Positions 1 to 48,935 of a DNA stretch of 64,000 nt are shown one piece after another. Source of the DNA: Patescibacteria group bacterium. GTDB lineage: Bacteria > Patescibacteriota > Microgenomatia > UBA10105 > UBA927. Location: positions 307,810 through 371,809 of the forward strand of contig DATKGN010000004.1 in the NCBI GenBank assembly GCA_035510735.1, written 5' to 3'. The stretch's first letter is position 1. Every line of letters begins with the position of its first letter. Under the pieces are notes generated by a model. It made no database searches. It saw nothing but the letters and a program-made list of their open reading frames with translations, and had not been told where the DNA came from. Both the position numbers and the translations under genes were made by a program.

Positions 1-32
1 ATAAGTAAAAGATCACGGTCATTGTCCATAAT

Positions 33-728
33 TTATTTCGTTAAATAATATGTTTTTAATTCAAGAGACGCCTGTAATAGTCTACTACTTGGCAGAGCGC
101 TTTGGCTACTCACATGTGTGGTATCGGTTGGAGAGATATTTATACTATCCACCGTTACGACGCGCCGTAGATTGTTGACATTCGTCAGAAATGATTTAAC
201 CCCGTCATACAGCCCCCGCACCTGAATCGTCACTATATAAGCCGGTTGGCTGGCAGGCGGACTTGTTGCCTGCCCCTTTTGCAAGCTATTTGATACTAAA
301 GGAATGGTTGGAGTTTGGATGGTGCTTAAAAGCACTCCACTCGCACTTGCGACATTCCGTAGCTGAATAAAAAAGGGTACGGCATCAGGCTGGGGTGGCA
401 GGGCCTGATCGACAACGGGAAGAAGCGGTTCTATCTGTTGATAATACGCCTGAGCTTCTATGAGAGCGGATATTTTGTCTTCCATCTCTTTGTTTAGTTC
501 GGTTTTATCTGCTATCTCGCGACGCAAATATAGTATCGTCTGAATGGTCGGCCGGATTGCATACCAGCCGAAGAGGGATACAGCGAGAAAAGAGAAAATA
601 ACGGTCGTATAACCACGGCTCGATGGTTTCGTAAATATGGGCTCGATTGATTGATAATATTTACGGTATTGTTTCAGTTCGGTTTTATAGTTAAATGGCA
701 TAGTATTATTTTGTCGTTGTTGGGACAA
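33..728 (-). CDS. Type IV pilus assembly protein, PilO-like (N-terminal TM, coiled coil, periplasmic domain)
   Basis: 231-aa ORF with a single N-terminal TM helix, a coiled-coil segment and a C-terminal globular part. Its start overlaps the stop of the upstream PilN-like ORF (typical pilN-pilO coupling). Confidence 0.4.
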   Translation of the reverse strand: MSQQRQNNTMPFNYKTELKQYRKYYQSIEPIFTKPSSRGYTTVIFSFLAVSLFGWYAIRPTIQTILYLRREIADKTELNKEMEDKISALIEAQAYYQQIEPLLPVVDQALPPQPDAVPFFIQLRNVASASGVLLSTIQTPTIPLVSNSLQKGQATSPPASQPAYIVTIQVRGLYDGVKSFLTNVNNLRRVVTVDSINISPTDTTHVSSQSALPSSRLLQASLELKTYYLTK

Positions 729-1257
729 CCTGTGTAGTAAAGGTAAATTGTATGCCTGTTAATGAGTCGCGCTTTATGTCGCCGATATCGAGAGCTGTCA
801 GATTTTTTGCCGCCTGCAAATTGGCAATAAACTGGGAAAATGCGGGAGTGGACCCTGCGTCAGCCTGGATGGTAATCTGATTTTTTGACAGATCCAATGA
901 TTGAAGATACACGCCAGCGGGCACTAATGATTGAAACTGGGCGACAGCGTCAACGGTATTTATCGGAACGGCGGTTAATGTTTTGATTTTCGCAAGTTTA
1001 TCCTGCAATGACCGAACATCCTGTTCAAAATCGAGGTTTGCCTGGATAATATCCTGTTTTTGCGATATTTCATCGTTGAGATCAGTAAGCCTGCGGTCAA
1101 GACTGAATCGGGAGATAAATGCAAGGAGCACCACGATTTCCGTACCGATCATGATGTATCTGCCGTAGGTAATCGCCCAACTTACGATACGCCCGACAGG
1201 CGTATGTTCCATATCAGAATCACCAAGAAGATTAACCGAGATATTTCCGGCAGGCAT
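706..1257 (-). CDS. Type IV pilus assembly protein PilN-like
   Basis: 183 aa with N-terminal ISVNLLG (PilN INLLP-like motif), a single TM helix, then a coiled coil. Confidence 0.5.
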   Translation of the reverse strand: MPAGNISVNLLGDSDMEHTPVGRIVSWAITYGRYIMIGTEIVVLLAFISRFSLDRRLTDLNDEISQKQDIIQANLDFEQDVRSLQDKLAKIKTLTAVPINTVDAVAQFQSLVPAGVYLQSLDLSKNQITIQADAGSTPAFSQFIANLQAAKNLTALDIGDIKRDSLTGIQFTFTTQVVPTTTK

Positions 1258-1612: not shown

Positions 1613-3265
1613 ATGAAGCGCGTTTGGGAGATTATTGAGAGAAAGCAGACATCGGTAGGATCTGCTGCAACGATTCTTGTCATCATGGTCCTGACTTCCC
1701 GCATACTTGGATTGGTGCGGGACCGGTTATTGGCCGCCCGTTTTTCGCCCGACGTCCTTGGTGTGTACTTTGCTGCATTCCGCATCCCTAATTTCATCTT
1801 TGAACTACTTGTGACCGGTGCGCTCACGAGTGCATTTATTCCGGTTTTTACCAAATATGTGACCCAGGGTAAGGAAAAAGAGGGTTGGCATATGGCATCA
1901 ATCCTTATCAATCTCAGCATTATTATATTGGCAGTTGTATCTATTCCGATGATCATTTGGGCTCCGGCTTTTTCACGATTTTTAGCTCCGGGATTTTCCG
2001 ATAGTCAGATACAACAGATGGCTTCGTTTAGCCGGATTATGATTATTTTTCAGGTTGTGCCGCTTTTGGTCGGTAATTTTTTAACCGGCATTCTGCAGTC
2101 GTACAACATGTTTCTTATCTCGGCACTGGCTCCGGTTGTTTATAACATCGGCATTATTCTCGGTATCGTGGCGTTATCAGGCTCTCTTGGTCTCTATGCA
2201 CCGGTAGTCGGAGTCGGCATTGGGGCATTCTTATTTGTCATTATCCAATTACCGCTTTTGTTTCGGATCGGATACAAGCATTCAGCTGATCTTGATATTC
2301 ATCATGAGGGAGTAAAAGAAGTCGGACGTTTGATCGGCCCCCGAACGCTTGGGCTTGCTGTTTCACAAATTGATTCGACCGTTGATCTCATGATGTCGAG
2401 TCTTTTAGGCGCTCGGATGGTCACGATATTCAATTTTGCACAAAATTTACAACAGGTACCGGTCGGATTATTCGGCGCAACGGTTGCTCAAGCGGCTCTC
2501 CCGACTCTCTCTGCCGCAACCGTGAGAGAAGATAAAGATACATTTAAAAAGTCCGTTATCAGCGCAATCCATCAGATATTATTTTTCGTACTGCCCTCAT
2601 CGGTTTTTTTCATCGTGCTTCGGATTCCTGTTGTTCGTTTGATTTTCGGTGCGGCTCGGTTCGACTGGCAGGCGACATATCTGACCGGTATGACGCTTTT
2701 TATGTTTAGTCTTTCGTTATTCGCACAATCAAGCGTCCACGTGTTTGCTCGGGGATTTTATGCTCTATATGATACAAAAACACCGGTCATCATCAGCATC
2801 ATTTCGATAGTAACCAACAGCATCGCGAGCGTGCTGTTTATTCTAGTATTTCATCTTCCTGTTTGGTCGCTCGGTTTGTCCACGTCGATAGCAAGCATTC
2901 TTAACGCAACTGTATTATTTATCCTATTGGATAGAAAAGTGGGGTATTTTTCGAAAAAAGAATTTTTTATTCCGCCTTTAAAAATGTTCATTGCATCGGC
3001 GATTGCGGGACTCGCCGTGTATATTCCCATGAAAATATTCGATCAATTGATTTTCGATACCACGAGAACATTTGGGTTAATTCTTCTCACAGGTACAGCG
3101 GGAGGAGTAGGACTTATTGTTTATGTCGCTCTTTCATGGATGTTTAACGTCGGAGAAGTGCATTCATTTATCGCTCTTATGAAACGTGTGCGTAAATCTT
3201 CTCCTGTGTTATTAGAACCGGCTGACGAGGTTATCGGCGGTGGTGTTGAAGACAAGCTTTCTTAA
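1613..3265 (+). CDS. murJ: Lipid II flippase MurJ (MviN)
   Basis: 550 aa, ~14 TM segments, N-terminal GLVRDRLLAARFSP motif characteristic of MurJ. Confidence 0.9.
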   Translation: MKRVWEIIERKQTSVGSAATILVIMVLTSRILGLVRDRLLAARFSPDVLGVYFAAFRIPNFIFELLVTGALTSAFIPVFTKYVTQGKEKEGWHMASILINLSIIILAVVSIPMIIWAPAFSRFLAPGFSDSQIQQMASFSRIMIIFQVVPLLVGNFLTGILQSYNMFLISALAPVVYNIGIILGIVALSGSLGLYAPVVGVGIGAFLFVIIQLPLLFRIGYKHSADLDIHHEGVKEVGRLIGPRTLGLAVSQIDSTVDLMMSSLLGARMVTIFNFAQNLQQVPVGLFGATVAQAALPTLSAATVREDKDTFKKSVISAIHQILFFVLPSSVFFIVLRIPVVRLIFGAARFDWQATYLTGMTLFMFSLSLFAQSSVHVFARGFYALYDTKTPVIISIISIVTNSIASVLFILVFHLPVWSLGLSTSIASILNATVLFILLDRKVGYFSKKEFFIPPLKMFIASAIAGLAVYIPMKIFDQLIFDTTRTFGLILLTGTAGGVGLIVYVALSWMFNVGEVHSFIALMKRVRKSSPVLLEPADEVIGGGVEDKLS

Positions 3266-13166: not shown

Positions 13167-14093
13167 ATGGCAACGAAGAGAGATTTTTACGAGGTATTAG
13201 GAGTCAGTAAATCTGCGTCCGCCGATGAGATCAAGAAGGCGTACCGGAAGCTGGCTTTAGAGTGGCATCCCGACCGGAATAAAGCCGCAAACGCACACGA
13301 AAAATTCAAGGAAATAAACGAAGCCTACGAAGTGTTATCCGATCCCAAAAAGAAACAGACATTTGATCAGTTTGGCGCGAGCGCATTTGAACCCGGGATG
13401 GGCGGAGCGGGCGCGACAGCGGGTCAGGGACCGTTTGGCGGCGGAGGATTTCAGCAAGGGCCGTTTACGTATTATTACCAAACCAATGGCGGGGCCCAGC
13501 AGGGCAATCCGTTTGCAGGAGGCGGCGCCGAGGGATTTGATTTTTCCGATCCGTTTGATATTTTCGAACAATTTTTCGGCGGCGGGTTCGGCAGAGCCCA
13601 GACATCCCGCCGAGCGCATCCGGCATATGAAATCACCATTGATTTTATGGACGCCGTGAAGGGCGTTTCCAAAGAAGTTCACCTCCCAAAGGGCGCTGCA
13701 GGTGAGGGAAGCGTCAAAAAAACCATAAAAATTCCGGCAGGAGTCGACACGGGCTCGCGAATCCGGTTTGATGATTTTGATATTGTTGTTGAAGTCCGGC
13801 CGAGCCAGCAGTATCACCGCGAGGGCAATGACCTTGTCATCGAACAGGCCATCACGTTCACGCAGGCGGCCCTGGGCGCCGTCGTTGACGTGCCGACTAT
13901 TGACGGAACAGTGAAAATCCGCATCCAGCCCGGGACTCAGCCGGGCACATTAATCAGACTTCACGGTAAAGGCGTCCCATCGGTCCGCGGCGCAGACCGC
14001 GGCGACGAATACGTCAAAATCCAGCTTCAAATCCCGACGCACCTCAACCACAGGCAAAAAGAGCTATTGGAAGAGCTTGAGAAGGTATCTTAG
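13167..14093 (+). CDS. dnaJ: DnaJ-family co-chaperone, type II (J domain + G/F region + C-terminal domains; no zinc-finger CxxCxGxG repeats)
   Basis: [34 protein letters not shown] domain, a Gly/Phe-rich region and a CTD. The protein contains no cysteines at all. Confidence 0.9.
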
Positions 14094-14112: not shown

Positions 14113-14925
14113 ATGACTTCTGAAGATTTATTAGTAGAGGCACTTCCCCTTTATAGAATTTTACAATCTACAGAAATAGCTGAGCGGTACTTAACGCCAA
14201 CATTTGCAACACTGCATGAAATGGCGAATGAGGCCTCTTTTCGGAATCGGGAGTATGGATGCCAAGTCAGTAGGATTAGACCACCACAAGAGGATACTTC
14301 ATTCCTTTCGACGTATACTATCGGTGATACCCGTACTGTTTTTGAACCTGAACGTAAGCCTGAATCTGTTGACGGCGTGTTTTTTCATACCCATTTCCGA
14401 CATAATCCTAGTTTGATTGATTCCTTAAAAGGTAAAAAAATGAGATCTTGGTATATGTTACCGAGTGATCTTGGTGTGCCGAGATCAATGAAAGCTCTCG
14501 AAATTTCCTGTGATATGTATGCACAAAAAGGATCAAAACAATTAGGCGGGTATTTTAATATTGTCACACCATTTCACTGGGCACTGCATATTTGGCAGGA
14601 GCATCAGAGTGGAATTTCAGTACCGGATTCGCAGTGGGAAATTGTTGAGGGTACGCAAAAAGGCAGGATATTTACCTGGCAGGAATTACTCAGGGATACG
14701 AAGTCTAAACCGGATAATGTGATGGTTTGGAAGCATAATTGGCCCGGAGGGGTGCAAAATTATTTTTTAGTTAGAAGTTTTTTGTTAGCAGATCAACTGG
14801 AGAGAGAAATCGGATCAGTTAAGGGACTATGTTATGGTGATGGAGTAGTTGTCCTTATGGATCGATTGGGGCTTCAGCATATTCCACACGCACGAAACTT
14901 AAGTGAAATTACAAAACTGTCCTGA
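14113..14925 (+). CDS. Hypothetical protein (inserted cassette gene downstream of dnaJ)
   Basis: 270-aa ORF with no recognisable family. Flanked by the native dnaJ 3' end and a duplicated dnaJ 3'-end fragment. Confidence 0.6.
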   Translation: MTSEDLLVEALPLYRILQSTEIAERYLTPTFATLHEMANEASFRNREYGCQVSRIRPPQEDTSFLSTYTIGDTRTVFEPERKPESVDGVFFHTHFRHNPSLIDSLKGKKMRSWYMLPSDLGVPRSMKALEISCDMYAQKGSKQLGGYFNIVTPFHWALHIWQEHQSGISVPDSQWEIVEGTQKGRIFTWQELLRDTKSKPDNVMVWKHNWPGGVQNYFLVRSFLLADQLEREIGSVKGLCYGDGVVVLMDRLGLQHIPHARNLSEITKLS

Positions 14926-14934
14926 CGGCATTAA

Positions 14935-15012
14935 ATTGTCAAAAGCCAGCTTCAAATTCCGACACACCTCAATCACAGGCAAAAAGAATTACTTGAAGAA
15001 TTAGAGGTCTAA
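14935..15012 (+). repeat. Duplicated dnaJ 3'-end fragment ([25 protein letters not shown]-stop), a diverged copy of 14011-14093
   Basis: In-frame peptide nearly identical to the DnaJ C-terminus ([27 protein letters not shown]). The nucleotide differences are mostly synonymous, and an in-frame stop lies immediately upstream. Confidence 0.8.
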
Positions 15013-15999
15013 AACCCTGCCAATTCCAAGCTCGATGAGGGAGAGTGAATTAAGAAGAGTAGAAACGAATGTCGGATCATAAGAATTGAACGACGGGTCT
15101 GCATAGTATTTACGGCTTAATGCGTATACCTCTTCGATATTTACCACTGATTGCATCAATGAAGTATCAATTGTGCTATATCGGTGTTGGGCTAGTTCGC
15201 GATAGTACCGAAATTGTTGAGATACCCAATCGACGAGTATTTTCCTTTGTTCTTCAAAAGTTGCATGTACATGGTCTACAAAACTGCTCTGGTATTTTTG
15301 TTGTGCTTCAGATTCCCAATGACCCATTTCCCTTATCATGTCTCGTTCTTCTTGCCTGAAAACATCATTTAGTAGATTCGAGACCATAAAACTATAGTTC
15401 GGGTTATCAAGATAGCGGATGAGTTTGTTCGTGCTAATACCATGAAAAGTGAATGGAGCCACGGTGATATCATGTGTTGCGAATATCGGGACGGTATAGT
15501 GAATATGGGGAATAGGGCGTTGTTCCTCTGCTAACTGCATCAGGCGCATGGCTACAATTCCCGACGTAAAAAACTTATCACGACCTTCATCAATTGGAAA
15601 CGTATATTTGAGTGCAAATTCTTTTTTACCGTCGTTAGTGATTAAAAATATTGTGTACACTTTGCTTTCCATCCCTCCCAATGTATTGTTCCCCTGAATA
15701 ACGTGTCCGTCGTATATTTGAGAGAGTATTCCTGGATTGTTGGCTAAGAGATGTACGCCTTCCGGTGAAGCGATAAACGTAGCAGGAACCAAACCTGCAA
15801 GTGTTTGTTCATTGTGTTCTAACGAGGCGATTACAGTGTTTCCCATGAAATCATGAGAAACCATAACGCCGGGTAGTTCGGTGGGTTGCAGCCTGGTATC
15901 CAGGTATCGCTGTATAGCGTCTAGTGGTGGTTTATCAAATCTGGTTATATATTTAAGGCGTTCTGGCGGTCTATCCATAGATGGCGGCGATTGTATCAA
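15001..15999 (-). CDS. Hypothetical protein
   Basis: 332-aa ORF with no recognisable family. Its stop codon lies inside the duplicated dnaJ fragment. Confidence 0.55.
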   Translation of the reverse strand: MIQSPPSMDRPPERLKYITRFDKPPLDAIQRYLDTRLQPTELPGVMVSHDFMGNTVIASLEHNEQTLAGLVPATFIASPEGVHLLANNPGILSQIYDGHVIQGNNTLGGMESKVYTIFLITNDGKKEFALKYTFPIDEGRDKFFTSGIVAMRLMQLAEEQRPIPHIHYTVPIFATHDITVAPFTFHGISTNKLIRYLDNPNYSFMVSNLLNDVFRQEERDMIREMGHWESEAQQKYQSSFVDHVHATFEEQRKILVDWVSQQFRYYRELAQHRYSTIDTSLMQSVVNIEEVYALSRKYYADPSFNSYDPTFVSTLLNSLSLIELGIGRVLDL

Positions 16000-16209
16000 A
16001 CTGTGTATTATTTATCCATAATTTTGCATCGGGGATTGCAAACCAATGGGCAGAGTGACGCATACGAAATTCCCTTCGGGCATATTAAGTTGATTATCCC
16101 CAATATCGAAAAGGCAAGAGATGTACTATTGGGAGGGGAATTTAAAGAAGTAGCAGATAAACTAACGGTACTGTCTAAATTAGTTGAAGATGATATCGTT
16201 TCTAACGAT

Positions 16210-16324
16210 GGAGCGTTGGCAGAGCGGTAATGTCGGAGTTCTCGAGACTCTAGGAGGCTAAAATACATCATAATTAAGTGTGTTAGTAAGTGTTTCGTAG
16301 GTTCAAATCCTACACCCTCCGCCA
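16210..16324 (+). tRNA. tRNA-like gene (type II/Ser-like features) with a ~45-nt AT-rich insert between the anticodon arm and T arm; 3' CCA encoded
   Basis: Acceptor GGAGCGT/ACCCTCC (one mismatch). 3-bp D stem with GAGCGGTAA loop. Anticodon stem GGAGT/ACTCT with 7-nt loop TCTCGAG. Canonical T arm GTAGG-TTCAAAT-CCTAC. Discriminator G then CCA. Total 115 nt, too long for any standard tRNA. Confidence 0.45.
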
Positions 16325-16478
16325 GGACGGACAAAATATAAAACGAGTTATCTGGCAATCCAGAGCATACGAAAAACACATTCGAACTAAAGAATATGTT
16401 TAGCTTGAGAGGAGGCGGGATTTGAATCTAACTATTTATGATGTCAGAAGAAATATTATTTCTCGATTTAATTAAGGG

Positions 16479-17360
16479 TCAATAATTGGTAAACCCAACT
16501 TTTGGATTTTGACACATATCGAAATTAGAAAAGCTTGCTACTCCAATTCCAGAACCACTACCGGTAGCAGTAAGCCGTAAATTACTCAACGCACTTTGGA
16601 TGTTTGTAAATTCGGAAACAAGATGATAATCCACCTCATTGTGCAATTTGTATGAAAGTTTCACATCAGTGCCAATTTTCAGAATTTTGAATCTTAAAGG
16701 AACATTTGTTGGAGTTTTGATATTGGAAATCCCAGTATCGTTTGATTTTCCATTCGAAATATTATAAGCTCTTACTCCACCTAAGTTGTCTCTAAGCAAT
16801 ACAACCCCATTTTTCAGATCTTTATCCCTTAGTACAATTGTTCCAATCATTTGATCGGAAGAACTGTCTGTTTCTACGGGTAATACGTCAATCTCAATTG
16901 ATATGTTTTCAGTATTTAAATTCGTCATCTCTACTGCACGACCACGCCAACTTTTCTGTAAACCCACTTTTTCAATCAACTGTGAATTTGATACATTAAA
17001 ATTGTCGCGGGAATCTAAACTAGTCGGACTTGCTACGATATTCCAATTCTGTGAATTAAGTGTAATACCGGGGAAAGTGTCCTGTAATTCAGTCGAACAA
17101 GGTGCAATCACCGGACTACTTATTGGCGATGGAACGACAGGAGTTGGTGTTGGTTGAACTAAGGAGATTTGTTGTTTCAGTTGCATATTTTGATACGCAA
17201 AGAATCCCGCAGCTCCGAGAACAAGGAGCAGAATAATAATTATACATACCATTAATAGCGGGTTATTTGATTTTACAGGCATTGGCGTAACCGGTTGTAT
17301 TGGAAATGGCTGTGAAGGAGTCGGAGGTATCGGCGTTTGAGGAGGAATAATAGGTTCCAT
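16479..17360 (-). CDS. Proline-rich membrane-anchored protein with extracellular domain (hypothetical)
   Basis: N-terminal P-rich repeats (PIPPTPSQPFPIQPVTP), one TM helix and a ~200-aa exported domain. Confidence 0.55.
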   Translation of the reverse strand: MEPIIPPQTPIPPTPSQPFPIQPVTPMPVKSNNPLLMVCIIIILLLVLGAAGFFAYQNMQLKQQISLVQPTPTPVVPSPISSPVIAPCSTELQDTFPGITLNSQNWNIVASPTSLDSRDNFNVSNSQLIEKVGLQKSWRGRAVEMTNLNTENISIEIDVLPVETDSSSDQMIGTIVLRDKDLKNGVVLLRDNLGGVRAYNISNGKSNDTGISNIKTPTNVPLRFKILKIGTDVKLSYKLHNEVDYHLVSEFTNIQSALSNLRLTATGSGSGIGVASFSNFDMCQNPKVGFTNY

Positions 17361-17547
17361 AAATTTATCATAGCATGATTAAATTTATTAAACGATAAGA
17401 TTTACGCTACAATTCAATTGTCCTTGAGGTAAGATAGTGGTTTTGAAATAGGTTATAACACTGTAAATAGTTCTCCGCACAAATTTTTTTGTTCACCCGT
17501 ATATCTGTGATATTATATGTGTGTTTACTAACACACTTAACATAACA

Positions 17548-17568
17548 AGCCCTTTCGTGGGGCTTTTT
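17548..17568 (+). terminator. Rho-independent terminator-like hairpin (AGCCC-TTTCGTG-GGGCT + TTTT)
   Basis: 5-bp GC-rich stem plus U-tract, downstream of a possible weak promoter (TTGTTC ... TATTAT) at ~17490-17515. Confidence 0.45.
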
Positions 17569-17587
17569 ATGTGGCCGGCCGAGGAGA

Positions 17588-17616
17588 TTGACGGGTGATG
17601 TGTAAGTGAGTATAAT
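17588..17616 (+). promoter_or_regulatory. Consensus sigma-70 promoter TTGACG-N17-TATAAT
   Basis: TTGACG 17588-17593, 17-nt spacer, TATAAT 17611-17616. Transcript would start ~17623, i.e. ~140 nt upstream of the nusA ATG. Confidence 0.65.
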
Positions 17617-17640
17617 ACGGCTAAGATTTGTTCTCGATGA

Positions 17641-17666
17641 GGTGGGATGTTCCCACCTTTTTTATT
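17641..17666 (+). terminator. Strong intrinsic terminator/attenuator hairpin GGTGGGA-TGT-TCCCACC followed by TTTTTTATT
   Basis: Perfect 7-bp stem plus 6 U, located ~20 nt after the predicted transcription start and 100 nt before nusA. Confidence 0.6.
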
Positions 17667-17683
17667 AAAAAGTTAATTTTAGT

Positions 17684-17751
17684 ATCCTGTTTTTTAGGAA
17701 AAACAGGATGAAGAGACCACTAGTCTATTTTGTTAGGAAACAAAATAGACT
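17684..17751 (+). promoter_or_regulatory. Twin perfect palindromes (11-bp and 13-bp stems, loops TAGG / AGGA) immediately upstream of nusA
   Basis: ATCCTGTTTTT-TAGG-AAAAACAGGAT (17684-17709) and AGTCTATTTTGTT-AGGA-AACAAAATAGACT (17722-17751). The two share sequence similarity. Confidence 0.5.
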
Positions 17752-17763
17752 GTGGATACTAAC

Positions 17764-18915
17764 ATGCCGGCAACAGTACGAAGCGAATTTTCATTAGCAC
17801 TTAACCAGGTCGCAACCGAACGGGGAATTGATCCCGCGATCGTGTTGGATACGATCAAAGCCGCAATTTTGGCCGCCTACCGCAAAGATTACGGTGAGAA
17901 CGAACTTGAAACGTTGACGGTGGACCTCAATGCCGATAACGGTGAAGCAAAGATTTTCAGAGACGGAAAAGATATCACTCCTCCGGGATTCGGCCGGATT
18001 GCCGCTCAGACCGCAAAACAGGTCATATTACAGCGTATCCGCGAAGCCGAAAAACAGGCAGTTTTGGCTGATTATCAGACCAAAGTTGGCACGATTGCAC
18101 CCGGTATGGTACTCCGGTTTGACGGCCCGAATATCATTGTCGATATCGGCAGAACCCAGGCCGTTATGCCGCCTCAGGAGCAAAGTCAAGGCGAGCGTTA
18201 TCACCTTAACCAACGGCTTACGTTTTACATTGAGGGAATCAGGGAAACTGCACGAGGCAACGAAATCATCGTTTCCCGCGCGCACAAGGGGTTGGTCGAA
18301 GGACTTTTCCGGCGCGAGGTTCCTGAAGTTGCACAGGGTTCAGTTGAACTCAGGGTGGTCGCACGGGAAGCCGGTGGTCGCACCAAAGTGGCCGTATTCT
18401 CGACGCAATCAGGGGTTGATCCGGTCGGAAGCTGTGTCGGACAAAAAGGCGTCCGCGTGCAGGGAGTAATCGGCGAACTGGGTGGTAGTGAAAAAGTCGA
18501 CATCATTCAATGGAGCGAAGACGCCAAACAATTTATCACTGCGGCTTTGGCGCCAGCCAAAGACATTGAAGTAAGTCTTGATGAAAAGAAAAAAGCTGCA
18601 GTAGTTCTTATTCCTGAGGATCAATTATCTTTGGCGATCGGTCGCGACGGACAAAACGTGCGGCTCGCCGCGAAATTAACCGGCTGGAAAATTGATATAA
18701 AGGGCAAAGGAGTTCCTGTGGTAGAAGCACCAGTTGCACCAGCAACACCGGAAACAATAGAAACGCCAAAAGAAGAGGGGACAAAAGAAGCAAAAGAAGA
18801 GAAGGCGGCAGCGGAAACGCCCGTCGTTGTCGCTCCACCCGCAGCAGTACAACCCGTTACACCCACCGATACAAAACCAGCGGATACAAATTCAGCAGAT
18901 TCTAAAAAAGAATAG
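17764..18915 (+). CDS. nusA: Transcription termination/antitermination factor NusA
   Basis: N-terminal domain, S1 and KH domains (GPNIIVDIGRTQAVMPP, VGSCVGQKGVRVQ, LAIGRDGQNVRLA). Low-complexity acidic/Pro-Thr C-terminal tail. Confidence 0.9.
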   Translation: MPATVRSEFSLALNQVATERGIDPAIVLDTIKAAILAAYRKDYGENELETLTVDLNADNGEAKIFRDGKDITPPGFGRIAAQTAKQVILQRIREAEKQAVLADYQTKVGTIAPGMVLRFDGPNIIVDIGRTQAVMPPQEQSQGERYHLNQRLTFYIEGIRETARGNEIIVSRAHKGLVEGLFRREVPEVAQGSVELRVVAREAGGRTKVAVFSTQSGVDPVGSCVGQKGVRVQGVIGELGGSEKVDIIQWSEDAKQFITAALAPAKDIEVSLDEKKKAAVVLIPEDQLSLAIGRDGQNVRLAAKLTGWKIDIKGKGVPVVEAPVAPATPETIETPKEEGTKEAKEEKAAAETPVVVAPPAAVQPVTPTDTKPADTNSADSKKE

Positions 18916-21975: not shown

Positions 21976-22048
21976 TCTTGTAAATGTTCCCGTGATGATG
22001 TAAAATACCATCTACTGGAGCGCACAATTGCTCCTTTTTCGATATCAT

Positions 22049-22465
22049 ATGCCGAAAGCAAAAATAGTGAAAAAGCAAGCGGAAAAGAAAGTAGCAAAAA
22101 AAGTGAGCCCGAAAGCAAAGCCGGCCGCAAAAGTTACAGCGGATAAAACCGTCAAAGCGGTAAAAGGTAAAAAAGAATCAAAAAAGCCGGAAGTGGTAGC
22201 CGAACCAGCCGAAGATAAAAAAGACGTCATTTCCCAATATCAGGTAAAAGAGGGAGATACCGGGAGTCCTGAAGTACAGGTCGCACTTCTCACGAAACGG
22301 ATCGAAAAATTAGTTCTCCATCTCAAGAGTAATCCGGCAGATAATCATTCACGTCGAGGACTTTTGGGAATCGTCAGCAAGCGCCGCAGGCTTATCAATT
22401 ATCTGGAAAAGAAGGACGTAAAGCGATACAAAGCTATTGCGACGAAATTGGGCCTCGGAAAATAA
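22049..22465 (+). CDS. rpsO: 30S ribosomal protein S15 with Lys/Ala-rich N-terminal extension
   Basis: C-terminal 85 aa match S15 ([34 protein letters not shown]). ~55-aa KKxxAKK-rich extension. Confidence 0.85.
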
Positions 22466-44811: not shown

Positions 44812-45474
44812 ATGAGTGAGGATGCGATTGAGCAACTTTCTTCTCAACTATCAGAGATTCAAGATCCCGTTGAACGAAATATTATTTTGGAACTCGTTCG
44901 CACCCGTGCCGCGGCGGGATTTGAGATGCAACAAGACGAAAGATCAGATATATATTGGAAAGGGGTTGGTAACATTATAGAAGAAATGATGAAAAGACCA
45001 GAAGAAGCATTGAACTCCGCGATTGATATTCTTAAGCTCCCTGAGAGGAGCAATGATCCTGATCAGTTTCGATCATGGCTTAAAGGAAATGTATTAATCA
45101 TTCTTTCTGACCCGAGGATGCAATCCCTGGTAACTCATGAACTTAATAAACCTGGCGAAACTGTTATCCATTCTTCGCTTGCAGAATTCTTGAGTTATCA
45201 AATTCCCAAAACGATCACAACAAAAGAAGATTTATCACATCACCCCCAGTGTTTTGAATTAGTGATGAGTATGGTCATGGTCAGCAGTCTTACAGAGCAA
45301 CACATTCCGTCGCTTTCTCCCTTAGCGGAGAGAACGGGTGAGCTTCTTCAGGATGAAATGGCAAGACGCGTTATTGATCTGTATTATGACGTTCCGGGTG
45401 ACAAACAATACGTGGAGCCTGTCTATAACCTTATTCATCCAGAGGCACAATCAGAGGGAGATGTTGGGGTATAA
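44812..45474 (+). CDS. Hypothetical protein
   Basis: 220-aa ORF with no recognisable family. Confidence 0.5.
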   Translation: MSEDAIEQLSSQLSEIQDPVERNIILELVRTRAAAGFEMQQDERSDIYWKGVGNIIEEMMKRPEEALNSAIDILKLPERSNDPDQFRSWLKGNVLIILSDPRMQSLVTHELNKPGETVIHSSLAEFLSYQIPKTITTKEDLSHHPQCFELVMSMVMVSSLTEQHIPSLSPLAERTGELLQDEMARRVIDLYYDVPGDKQYVEPVYNLIHPEAQSEGDVGV

Positions 45475-47675: not shown

Positions 47676-48935
47676 CTAATAATATCCTTCGTCCGCTAAA
47701 AAATTCTTGAGATTCAACATTGCCATCCTATTCTTGGTTCGCATTCCCGTACACGCATTATCATAAATGTTCTGCGCTCTCTTTTCCGGTACACCCAAGT
47801 GTCTCGCCAGTTCTTTTATCGTTCTACGTTCTCCGAGCAGCATAAAACGGACTGACCGCTGTTGACGTTCACTGAGTCCTACCAATCCTTTTTCAACCAG
47901 CTCTTCAAATCGTAGATGTTTTTCTACAGCAAGATGGCTTCGATCCATTTCAACGCCCTGCTGATCCATCAACGTCGTGTCATCATCCTCACTATCAAGA
48001 GGTTGATCTCCATCGACTGTCTGCGACAGGTTTTCCATTGATTCAAATGCATCCAGTCTTGCAAGGCTCCGTTCCATTAAATCCTCATCGGAGGATTGGT
48101 GTTTATCATGAGAAAATATTCCAAGTGTATTTGCCATTTCTAAAACTGATTCGCGCAAATTTGCTTCCTGGGAGGTTAATTTTTGATCGGGTTGTAAATG
48201 GTAGATAACGATTGCCTGAGCTAAAATCCTATTATTCGGCGATTCTCCCTTCACGCTCTCCCACATGTTTTTTGCCTCACGAATTGCCTGAATCCGCTCA
48301 TCAGTATATTCAGTTTTTCCCCGGTCCTCCGATACTGCGCGTGACAGAGCGGAGTAAATACCGCTATGCAGATATGTCGATAAGGCTCCTAATTTCCAAT
48401 CCCACCATGGAAAGGCGCTCACGAGCTTTTCACAACCGACCTGATACAGATCATTTATCGACATGCTGCCCGATGTTAAGCTGCTATAGCTCCTTGCAAT
48501 AACACTGATCCATCGCAATTTATTGCCTATCAGATATTCCGTTGCTTGTTCTGTCAAGTATCTTTTACCCTTCATTCCTTTGGATTCCTCGATGATTCTC
48601 CCGAGAGAAGCCTCTTTGAAAAGGGACATACGGGGGTATCGGCTCATTTCAGCTACAGTATACGAATCCAGTTCGTGAGCATCTGGTAGAGTTTTAGCTC
48701 TTCGCATAGCTTCCTCGCTTTGTTCTTTCTCTATCTCTGAGACTTTTGTACCGTACTCCTTTAACACATCGCATAGTTGAGGCCATGATAATGCGGAGAC
48801 CTCTTGTACTAACGATGCTCTCGCATCAATGCCGTTTGACTGATCGCTATGAGTTTCGTCGAGAATTTCAACCATATTTGTATGTAGATAACCTACGTGA
48901 GCACAGAGTATACCAATTTTGCCTGGAAAATTCAA
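47676..48935 (-). CDS. RNA polymerase sigma factor, sigma-70 family (divergent, RpoD-like regions 2 and 4)
   Basis: Region 2 (LNDLYQVGCEKLVSAF, LSTYLHSGIYSALSRAV) and region 4 HTH (TIKELARHLGVPEKRAQNIYDNACTGMR). 419 aa. Confidence 0.6.
   Translation of the reverse strand: MNFPGKIGILCAHVGYLHTNMVEILDETHSDQSNGIDARASLVQEVSALSWPQLCDVLKEYGTKVSEIEKEQSEEAMRRAKTLPDAHELDSYTVAEMSRYPRMSLFKEASLGRIIEESKGMKGKRYLTEQATEYLIGNKLRWISVIARSYSSLTSGSMSINDLYQVGCEKLVSAFPWWDWKLGALSTYLHSGIYSALSRAVSEDRGKTEYTDERIQAIREAKNMWESVKGESPNNRILAQAIVIYHLQPDQKLTSQEANLRESVLEMANTLGIFSHDKHQSSDEDLMERSLARLDAFESMENLSQTVDGDQPLDSEDDDTTLMDQQGVEMDRSHLAVEKHLRFEELVEKGLVGLSERQQRSVRFMLLGERRTIKELARHLGVPEKRAQNIYDNACTGMRTKNRMAMLNLKNFLADEGYY

Follow-up and report, generated by a model that had tools for sequence, protein, structure and literature searches.

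A rimP-leader-class attenuator ahead of nusA in a Candidatus Gottesmanbacteria genome, followed by a covarying hairpin that abuts the start codon

What does the crowded DNA ahead of nusA do in a genome where neither rimP nor metY lies upstream of that gene? The question is raised by a 64-kb stretch of DNA (hereafter the window) from an uncultivated Candidatus Gottesmanbacteria genome (Microgenomates, within the Patescibacteria or Candidate Phyla Radiation, CPR), so assigned through its NusA relatives, in which nucleotides 17361-17763 form a divergent intergenic region, flanked on one side by nusA and on the other by a minus-strand gene (16479-17360) for an uncharacterised membrane protein. An earlier note, made from the sequence alone, had correctly remarked on the missing metY and rimP, and had proposed NusA-dependent attenuation, tiny small RNAs or protein operator sites as functions for the promoter, terminators and palindromes it saw there. 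Our comparison with related loci indicates that the promoter and one terminator form a genuine, conserved attenuator of the nusA leader, of the class known as rimP-leader, and that the palindromes lie in two further RNA hairpins, B and C. As an overall explanation, a rimP-leader-class attenuator with feedback by NusA, followed by a hairpin abutting the AUG, strikes us as probable, with real room for doubt. The features that carry the first part of this argument are these:

17588-17616, plus strand: nusA promoter, with -35 box TTGACG (17588-17593), a 17-nt spacer and -10 box TATAAT (17611-17616), matching 11 of 12 consensus positions
17623-17638, plus strand: purine-rich short leader, conserved in length and not in sequence when relatives' leaders are compared
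17639-17663, plus strand: intrinsic terminator of the rimP-leader class, with its stem at 17639-17659 and its T run at 17658-17663
17764-18915, plus strand: nusA, 383 aa

Taken as single-sequence consensus hits, the promoter and terminator matches do not go beyond chance: in a 2-kb scan, promoter-like sites numbered 4 where 4.2 were expected, and terminator-like sites 5 where 2.0 +/- 1.8 were. The real support for the leader features is instead their conservation across relatives. Our comparison set holds 80 nusA loci of ~7 kb each, taken from species-representative genomes of Ca. Gottesmanbacteria and other Microgenomates with NusA identities of 59-92%; counts over 81 sequences refer to these relatives plus the window. 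Of the 80 loci, 76 contain the motif GGTGGG...CCCRCC; each of them has a single copy, 12-153 nt before the nusA ATG in every case. Written as GGTGGG-N(2-9)-CCCRCC, it occurs once in the whole window against 0.06 expected, in a hairpin 106 nt ahead of the ATG. A promoter of the form TTGACN-16..18-TAnAnT ends 17-29 nt ahead of the terminator stem in 62 of 77 loci. When the window is aligned with its closest relative, L001, homology starts exactly at the -35 box, and only one substitution separates the two over the ~85 nt that start slightly before the -10 box and reach a little beyond the T run. The cassette also stays with nusA whatever the upstream neighbour, be it dnaJ, a divergent gene or an unrelated one. 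Both the promoter and the terminator just after it, which the earlier note had pointed out, hold up. Four loci lack the full motif: the truncated L057, and L074, L075 and L077. The latter three are the most distant relatives, in which the GGTGGG terminator is absent; in L075 and L077, -10-like boxes (TATACT, TACAAT) end within ~15 nt of the nusA ATG, and nusA there may be leaderless or nearly so.

The hairpin itself has the anatomy of an intrinsic terminator, which we took to be a GC-rich stem of at least 5 bp with a loop of 3-8 nt, followed by a U run. Its stem, AGGTGGGA/TCCCACCT at 17640-17647/17651-17658, makes nine pairs including G17639.T17659, five of them G-C, around a 3-nt loop, and the hairpin comes to -14.1 kcal/mol. 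Within the stem, the arms GGTGGG (17641-17646) and CCCACC (17652-17657) are invariant among loci except at one 3'-arm position: position 4 is A in 32 and G in 45 of the 77 hairpins, giving U-A or U.G. A U.G pair is possible only in plus-strand RNA. Loops are mostly GNRA and the mean free energy of the 77 hairpins is -13.7 +/- 1.2 kcal/mol; at least seven T are found in the first nine nucleotides past the stem in 73 of 77 loci (in the window, T6 at 17658-17663). We found no antiterminator, in that no fold competes with the terminator: the best alternative pairing of the leader with the 5' arm has a mean of -0.7 kcal/mol, and each of the 62 minimum-free-energy folds examined keeps the terminator whole. 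Transcription is predicted to start near 17623 in the window, and over the loci the predicted terminated RNA has a median length of ~42 nt. RNA folding, which the earlier note had proposed as a check, bears out a highly structured leader, the RNA of 17623-17775 folding at -51.6 kcal/mol (z = -6.07 against shuffles). Two relatives carry additional structure between promoter and terminator. In L036 (1490-1620) there is a second unit resembling hairpins B (in its long form) and C, besides the usual downstream one, and the leader before the terminator reaches 135 nt; in L079 the addition is one short hairpin.

Where a strong terminator comes after a strong promoter, an abundant short RNA results by construction, and one may ask whether the cassette is an independent small RNA gene of ~42 nt that is merely syntenic with nusA. 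A unit farther upstream (17508-17570) likewise combines an extended -10-like box with a terminator and could be counted as a second such RNA. We consider this very unlikely. The 5' part of the transcript outside the hairpin varies freely and has no conserved seed, and in 76 loci the only place of the cassette is 12-153 nt from the nusA ATG. Moreover, rimP-nusA operons of different phyla have this same hairpin in their leaders, and the upstream unit is present in only 2 of 81 sequences. It is because the 5' part is unconserved and the cassette always travels with nusA that we do not favor the small RNA reading, and we return to the attenuator.

To which known system does this attenuator belong? 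The rimP-leader, which Naville & Gautheret (2010, Genome Biol 11:R97, PMC2965389) present as the transcription attenuator with the widest distribution, is a short terminator in the leader of rimP-nusA-infB operons; its 5' arm is rich in G and its 3' arm in C, with GGGc...gCCC conserved and a U stretch after the stem. It works without an antiterminator, is absent from other terminators, lies 4-130 nt from the start codon, and has NusA as its proposed sensor (PMC2965389). By inspection, the core GUGGG...CCC(A/G)C plus U run recurs in the published list (PMC2965389), in entries from Alpha- and Deltaproteobacteria, Cyanobacteria, Chlorobi, Clostridia and staphylococci. Two Rickettsia entries read AGGTGGGTTTATCCCACCTTTTTT, with stem arms identical to those in the window; the Rickettsia form is AGGTGGG...TCCCACCTTTTTT. 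Since this core is common to the published list, the window cassette is, as judged from sequence, a member of the known attenuator family, a rimP-leader-class attenuator tied to nusA and here without rimP. The other properties of the family are also found: position in the operon leader (rimP is absent, infB follows nusA), G-rich and C-rich arms with a GGG...CCC core, a U stretch, a variable distance to the start codon, a motif confined to the leader within the window and within the ~7-kb loci, and no antiterminator. There are differences as well. The leader stands directly before nusA, rimP being absent; the 2010 survey did not include the clade, CPR/Patescibacteria; the stem GGUGGG/CCCRCC is invariant over its full 6 bp; the consensus promoter is only ~24 nt upstream; and hairpins B and C follow downstream in about a third of the clade. 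Thus, the earlier suggestion of NusA-dependent attenuation stands insofar as there is a conserved nusA leader attenuator that matches the rimP-leader motif, but not as a leader with two terminators, the upstream hairpin lying outside it.

A feature of this attenuator that calls for explanation is its stem. Across 77 loci the stem sequence is frozen and shows no covariation, while the loop, leader and flanks drift, a pattern that speaks for a hairpin read as sequence and not as structure alone. That rimP-leader hairpins might be read in this way was raised already in 2010 (PMC2965389). One possible answer is a reader other than NusA: the invariant G-rich 5' arm (GAGGUGGG) resembles a Shine-Dalgarno (SD) sequence, and could be bound by a factor such as the anti-SD sequence of free 30S subunits or another operon protein, with binding competing against hairpin formation and thereby setting read-through. 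GAGGUG is complementary to the anti-SD sequence, the operon encodes IF2 and S15, both linked to the 30S subunit, and a generic terminator needs neither an invariant stem in 77 loci nor a lack of covariation. However, published rimP-leaders of other phyla read GAGUGGG or AUGGGC, which are not SD-like, the clade hardly uses SD sequences, and the proposal is pure conjecture; we hold it to be a very slim prospect.

Downstream of the shared terminator the leaders differ. In 22 loci (class I) the ATG follows 10-28 nt past the stem with no SD; 24 loci (class II) have an explicit AAGGAG-type SD; and 26 loci, the window among them, plus the truncated L057 (class III) carry hairpin B and then hairpin C. 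The remaining loci comprise five with other structured inserts and three without the terminator. These leader classes are interspersed on the NusA tree. The inserts of L004, L049, L023, L066 and L080 are unrelated structured or repetitive sequences between the terminator and the nusA ATG, L049 and L004 having AATGACC-type short tandem repeats plus a palindrome, and L023 GC-rich hairpins; such varied occupants of the slot suggest selection for some stable structure, or an insertion hot spot. In the window, the two hairpins of class III are laid out as follows:

17684-17709, plus strand: hairpin B, short form, with an 11-bp perfect stem (17684-17694/17699-17709) and the loop TAGG (UAGG in RNA), located by a repeat finder
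17710-17763, plus strand: hairpin C, a helix that extends to the nusA AUG and shows covariation
17710-17713 with 17759-17763, plus strand: P0 of hairpin C, a 4-pair outer helix
17716 with 17757, plus strand: the A-T pair of hairpin C above a small internal loop with conserved purines
17717-17720 with 17752-17755, plus strand: P1 of hairpin C, CCAC/GTGG, followed by the bulged T17721
17722-17734 with 17739-17751, plus strand: tip stem of hairpin C, a 13-bp perfect inverted repeat with the loop AGGA

The repeat finder thus recovers both perfect palindromes of the earlier note (17684-17709 and 17722-17751). The second was said to end at the nusA start; it is the core of the longer helix 17710-17763, and it is this helix that abuts the nusA ATG. 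A GTG at 17752 falls within the 3' arm of hairpin C; since every relative begins ATGCC(A/G), encoding Met-Pro, nusA starts at the ATG at 17764 and not at this GTG.

Hairpin C is supported by its pattern of substitution. In a MAFFT alignment of 26 sequences, 84% of cells are paired and 16 of 22 pairs have changed on both sides, and its covariation score of 0.353 compares with 0.131 in shuffles (0 of 500 reach it) and at most 0.09 with slid partners. RNAalifold returned no structure from this alignment, and the helix was therefore specified by hand and tested by pair counts and a covariance model. The model, R1, has one match per class-III locus, always at the nusA start; neither the 64 kb of the window nor the 7-kb flanking regions of the 80 loci hold a further copy. 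In 24 of 27 loci no nucleotide separates the end of the helix from the ATG. Hairpin B is more variable, its slot in relatives ranging from 26 to ~74 nt and from a 5-bp hairpin to a ~70-nt rod that we call B-long. The short form differs from its counterpart in L001 by two compensatory pair changes, and B and C together by about seven compensatory double substitutions. B-long is a conserved rod of 68-74 nt and ~25 bp. Its base (ACCCGCC/GGCGGGU) inverts the terminator arms, its 3x3 internal loop (UUA/AGC) is conserved and its tip is of the UUCG or UUUG type; 7 of 10 predicted pairs show compensatory changes, and no Rfam family covers it. Its carriers, with the rod ~70-150 nt before nusA, are L002, L005, L007, L009, L011, L015, L016, L020 and L022, together with L026, L036, L043, L046, L052, L054, L058 and L079. 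The palindromes had been called related in sequence, yet the 12-nt likeness of their tips in the window (TTTTTTAGGAAA, TTTGTTAGGAAA) is not conserved even in L001. B and C are, on the evidence of these alignments, two different RNA hairpins whose pairing is kept by compensatory changes.

The same evidence bears on whether the palindromes are instead sites that act in DNA, be they operators for dimeric proteins (as the earlier note considered), cruciforms, or mobile insertions resembling repetitive extragenic palindromes or miniature inverted-repeat transposable elements. In the window B and C are perfect palindromes with similar tips, and the several unrelated structured inserts in the same slot (L004, L049, L023) could mean an insertion hot spot. 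But an operator would conserve its sequence, and here the sequences of B and C drift with pairing kept by compensation, which is why we do not favor protein operator sites. The conserved asymmetric bulges of hairpin C (U 17721; A 17756, 17758 and 17761) break the dyad symmetry, R1 has no other copy in the 64 kb or in the 80 7-kb flanks and so is not a dispersed repeat, and the terminator's U.G pair works only in plus-strand RNA. Of the explanations weighed here, this is the one to which we give the least credence.

If B and C are RNA hairpins, what might they do for nusA? Hairpin C has a stability of -15 to -25 kcal/mol and covers positions -54 to -1, and as such it should hinder 30S binding; we therefore favor the view that it limits or gates translation of nusA. 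Operon leaders such as those of E. coli pnp and rpsO have repressor hairpins close to the start codon and translational operators. Like these, hairpin C fills the ribosome-binding region to -1, covaries, and has conserved unpaired purines; unlike them, it has no SD to hide in an SD-poor genome, and sister species' operons do without the hairpin. In the window, SD motifs are indeed rare, with AGGA, GGAG or GAGG at -22 to -4 in only 8 of 52 long open reading frames (ORFs), and -10-like hexamers pile up ending 6-8 nt before start codons (10 hits, against ~1 per position elsewhere). Examples from this survey are 706-1257(-), 1613-3265(+), 16479-17360(-), 44812-45474(+) and 47676-48935(-). From the scarcity of SDs and the -10 boxes near starts it follows that many mRNAs in the window are probably leaderless. 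The infB gene lacks an SD in all leader classes, and nusA, with its structured leader of ~140 nt, is atypical in such an SD-poor, leaderless-prone genome. We also considered that hairpin C might bring an upstream SD-like AGAGG close to the AUG, as in phage T4 gene 38. This split-SD arrangement is disfavored: the clade barely uses SDs, and the covariation-supported structure pairs three of the five AGAGG nucleotides, the third G covarying with its partner (G-C in 18, A-U in 7-8).

The main rival for the role of hairpin C is processing. B and C could be sites for a double-strand-specific ribonuclease, RNase III, rather than translational blocks, with cleavage at the base of C taking off the structured leader and producing an mRNA that starts at or next to the AUG, or else setting off decay of the operon mRNA. 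This would be compatible with the attenuator model for the terminator. Hairpin C offers a helix of 17-22 bp ending at -1 in 24 of 27 loci, B-long a rod of ~25 bp, and a leaderless start would suit a genome with SDs at 8 of 52 genes and -10 boxes 6-8 nt before starts. In E. coli, the metY-rimP-nusA leader and the pnp leader are both cleaved by RNase III, according to PMC5371410, which cites Regnier & Grunberg-Manago 1989. On the other hand, the helices have conserved bulges and internal loops, the conserved purine apical loop (AAGA or AGGA) is not needed by RNase III, and class I and II relatives do without any such hairpin. We regard processing as a minority view, the less probable by a good deal but worth keeping in mind.

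Putting these pieces together, we propose the following model of attenuation followed by translational gating. A near-consensus promoter of the sigma-70 type would start a transcript that, after ~15 nt, reaches the GGUGGG/CCCACC terminator with its U6 run. Most RNA polymerases would stop at 17639-17663 and release an RNA of ~42 nt, and the fraction reading through would make the mRNA for nusA, infB and probably also the same-strand genes rpsO and pnp. Because NusA stimulates hairpin-dependent termination, more NusA would mean more termination in its own leader, a negative feedback that would amount to attenuation without an antiterminator. Read-through RNA would carry B and C, and C, pairing everything from -54 to -1 and ending at the AUG, would most likely limit or gate the initiation of nusA translation, either directly or as a site for processing or protein binding. 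The analysis demonstrates the anatomy, its conservation, the family membership by sequence and the covariation in B and C; we infer that NusA is the sensor, how efficient termination is, and what B and C do. Precedents come from two well-studied bacteria: NusA-stimulated termination in its own leader is established autoregulation in Bacillus subtilis (Mondal et al. 2016, as summarised in PMC12288461), and feedback of NusA on its own leader is reported for E. coli in PMC2965389. The B. subtilis nusA (ylxS/rimP) leader likewise has a terminator in the operon's own leader, no antiterminator, and a proposed simple negative feedback by NusA; it differs in being ~180 nt long, in standing before rimP and in having been tested experimentally, and the window's terminator looks canonical and strong.

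Several observations weigh against this model. The terminator, with its perfect U6-7 run, GC-rich stem and GNRA loops, looks strong enough that read-through into an essential operon is unexplained. NusA-dependent terminators in B. subtilis tend to be weak. The dependence on NusA is carried over by analogy from E. coli and B. subtilis to the CPR, and the invariant stem implies that the sequence itself is recognised, which a plain effect of NusA on hairpin termination does not explain. About two thirds of the related genomes lack hairpins B and C, which are thus not essential to the attenuator. In hairpin C, counts of G.U against A.C (10 vs 20) give no proof of selection on plus-strand RNA. Finally, the window has no match to Rfam RF01770, either at the gathering threshold of 47 bits or at E <= 10, and is not a member of that narrower family; the E. 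coli leader, run as a positive control, scores 102 bits. We attribute the lack of a match to the model itself, which in its 102 positions covers only the gammaproteobacterial tandem-hairpin form (Rfam).

A bolder version of the model goes a step beyond this, and we offer it as a long shot, somewhat less probable even than processing by RNase III. In it, hairpin C together with B would be an undescribed second layer of control in this CPR clade, making nusA autoregulation two-tiered. Cleavage at C may strip the nusA mRNA of its leader and so leave it leaderless, in a genome where initiation is mostly leaderless and SD-free; or C may be bound, as a translational operator, by NusA or another product of the operon. 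Separately, the GGUGGG/CCCRCC stem would be a sequence-specific site for NusA, which, if true, would explain why the rimP-leader stem is conserved across phyla.

What, then, of the second terminator-like hairpin that the earlier note had placed upstream of the promoter? The relevant features are:

17508-17570, plus strand: upstream unit, with an extended -10-like box TGaTATTAT (17508-17516), a small hairpin (17519-17536) and a terminator-like hairpin
17547-17565, plus strand: the terminator-like hairpin of this unit, AAGCCCU/GGGGCUU followed by TTTTTAT, with a free energy of -10.4 kcal/mol

The hairpin with its TTTTTAT tail is present, but it is not part of the conserved leader: it stands upstream of the promoter, and the unit can be aligned only with L006, the motif being absent from the other 79 loci. 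Conservation among relatives, which the earlier note had named as a check, accordingly favors some hairpins and not others, the terminator being kept in 76 of 80 loci and B and C in about a third, but the upstream hairpin only in L006. The C-rich 5' arm, G-rich 3' arm and tail of this hairpin (GGGGCTTTTTATGTGG) resemble the first, 'inverse-motif' hairpin of gammaproteobacterial rimP leaders; known from two instances, this likeness is no more than an observation. In the E. coli metY-rimP-nusA-infB leader, tandem terminators follow metY, there is an RNase III site, and the long leader hairpins are processed (RF01770; PMC5371410); there an inverse-motif hairpin (CCC...GGG plus U run) precedes the GGG...CCC hairpin, much as 17547-17565 (AAGCCC...GGGGCUUUUUAUGUGG) does here. 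The window differs in having a complete promoter between the two hairpins and no tRNA gene, and in class-III loci an inverse motif, the base of B-long, sits downstream of the terminator instead. In L006, the ~70-nt unit matching window 17508-17570 (L006:2843-2897) lies downstream of a weak tRNA-like sequence (L006:2703-2806; Rfam tRNA-Sec, 19.7 bits, below threshold; ARAGORN negative), an order that recalls E. coli metY-terminator. The unit is possibly a small orphan transcript of ~50 nt, or a relic terminator of a lost upstream gene.

The remaining gene neighborhood is largely conventional. Downstream of nusA come infB, a DHH-family gene, a gene without assigned function, rpsO and pnp, and this nusA-infB...rpsO-pnp order is the classical neighborhood. 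The rpsO (S15) ORF, 22028-22465, is listed as 145 aa, of which the Pfam S15 domain takes up residues 64-143 alone, and translation probably begins downstream of the TTG at 22028. On the upstream side, dnaJ ends just before the nusA promoter in ~35 relatives, and elsewhere the neighbor is divergent or unrelated. In the window dnaJ lies at 13167-14093, with four genes of unassigned function between it and nusA: 14113-14925 (+), 15001-15999 (-), 16008-16379 (-) and 16479-17360 (-), none with a Pfam match. As dnaJ is directly upstream of nusA in many relatives, 14113-17360 looks like an insertion that splits a dnaJ-nusA neighborhood. The window contains no tRNA gene, and none lies directly upstream of nusA in the 80 relatives; the sole tRNA hit among these loci is a tRNA-Ser ~1.2 kb upstream of nusA in L026. 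Two other candidates for the leader were set aside. A leader peptide or upstream ORF found no support: small ORFs are present, yet their start codons are not conserved in relatives. Rfam scans of the window at gathering and permissive thresholds returned nothing credible; a group I intron match (RF00028) over 17635-17747 reaches 20.7 bits against a threshold of 50, lacks the catalytic core (P3-P7), and fills model stretches of 114 and 37 positions with only 7 and 2 nt. We treat it as a chance resemblance of three hairpins to the intron's peripheral helices.

What do these leaders add to our understanding of nusA control? The general picture of NusA autoregulation is unchanged and the attenuator family was known; what appears to be new is its presence in a CPR lineage without rimP, and two lineage-specific hairpins supported by covariation. 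With this, the range of the most widespread transcription attenuator known comes to include the Candidate Phyla Radiation, and it is nusA, not rimP, to which the rimP-leader element is tied. Two points are left unexplained, the frozen sequence of the stem and the hairpin that abuts the AUG. For the former, the 77 sequences amount to a natural experiment in which the stem is frozen except for a U-A/U.G switch and the rest drifts, with a mechanism that is still unexplained. For the latter, the clade places three designs after the same attenuator, one lacking an SD, one with an explicit SD and one with a covarying hairpin right next to the AUG, and these are usable for asking how leadered mRNAs are translated in SD-poor bacteria.

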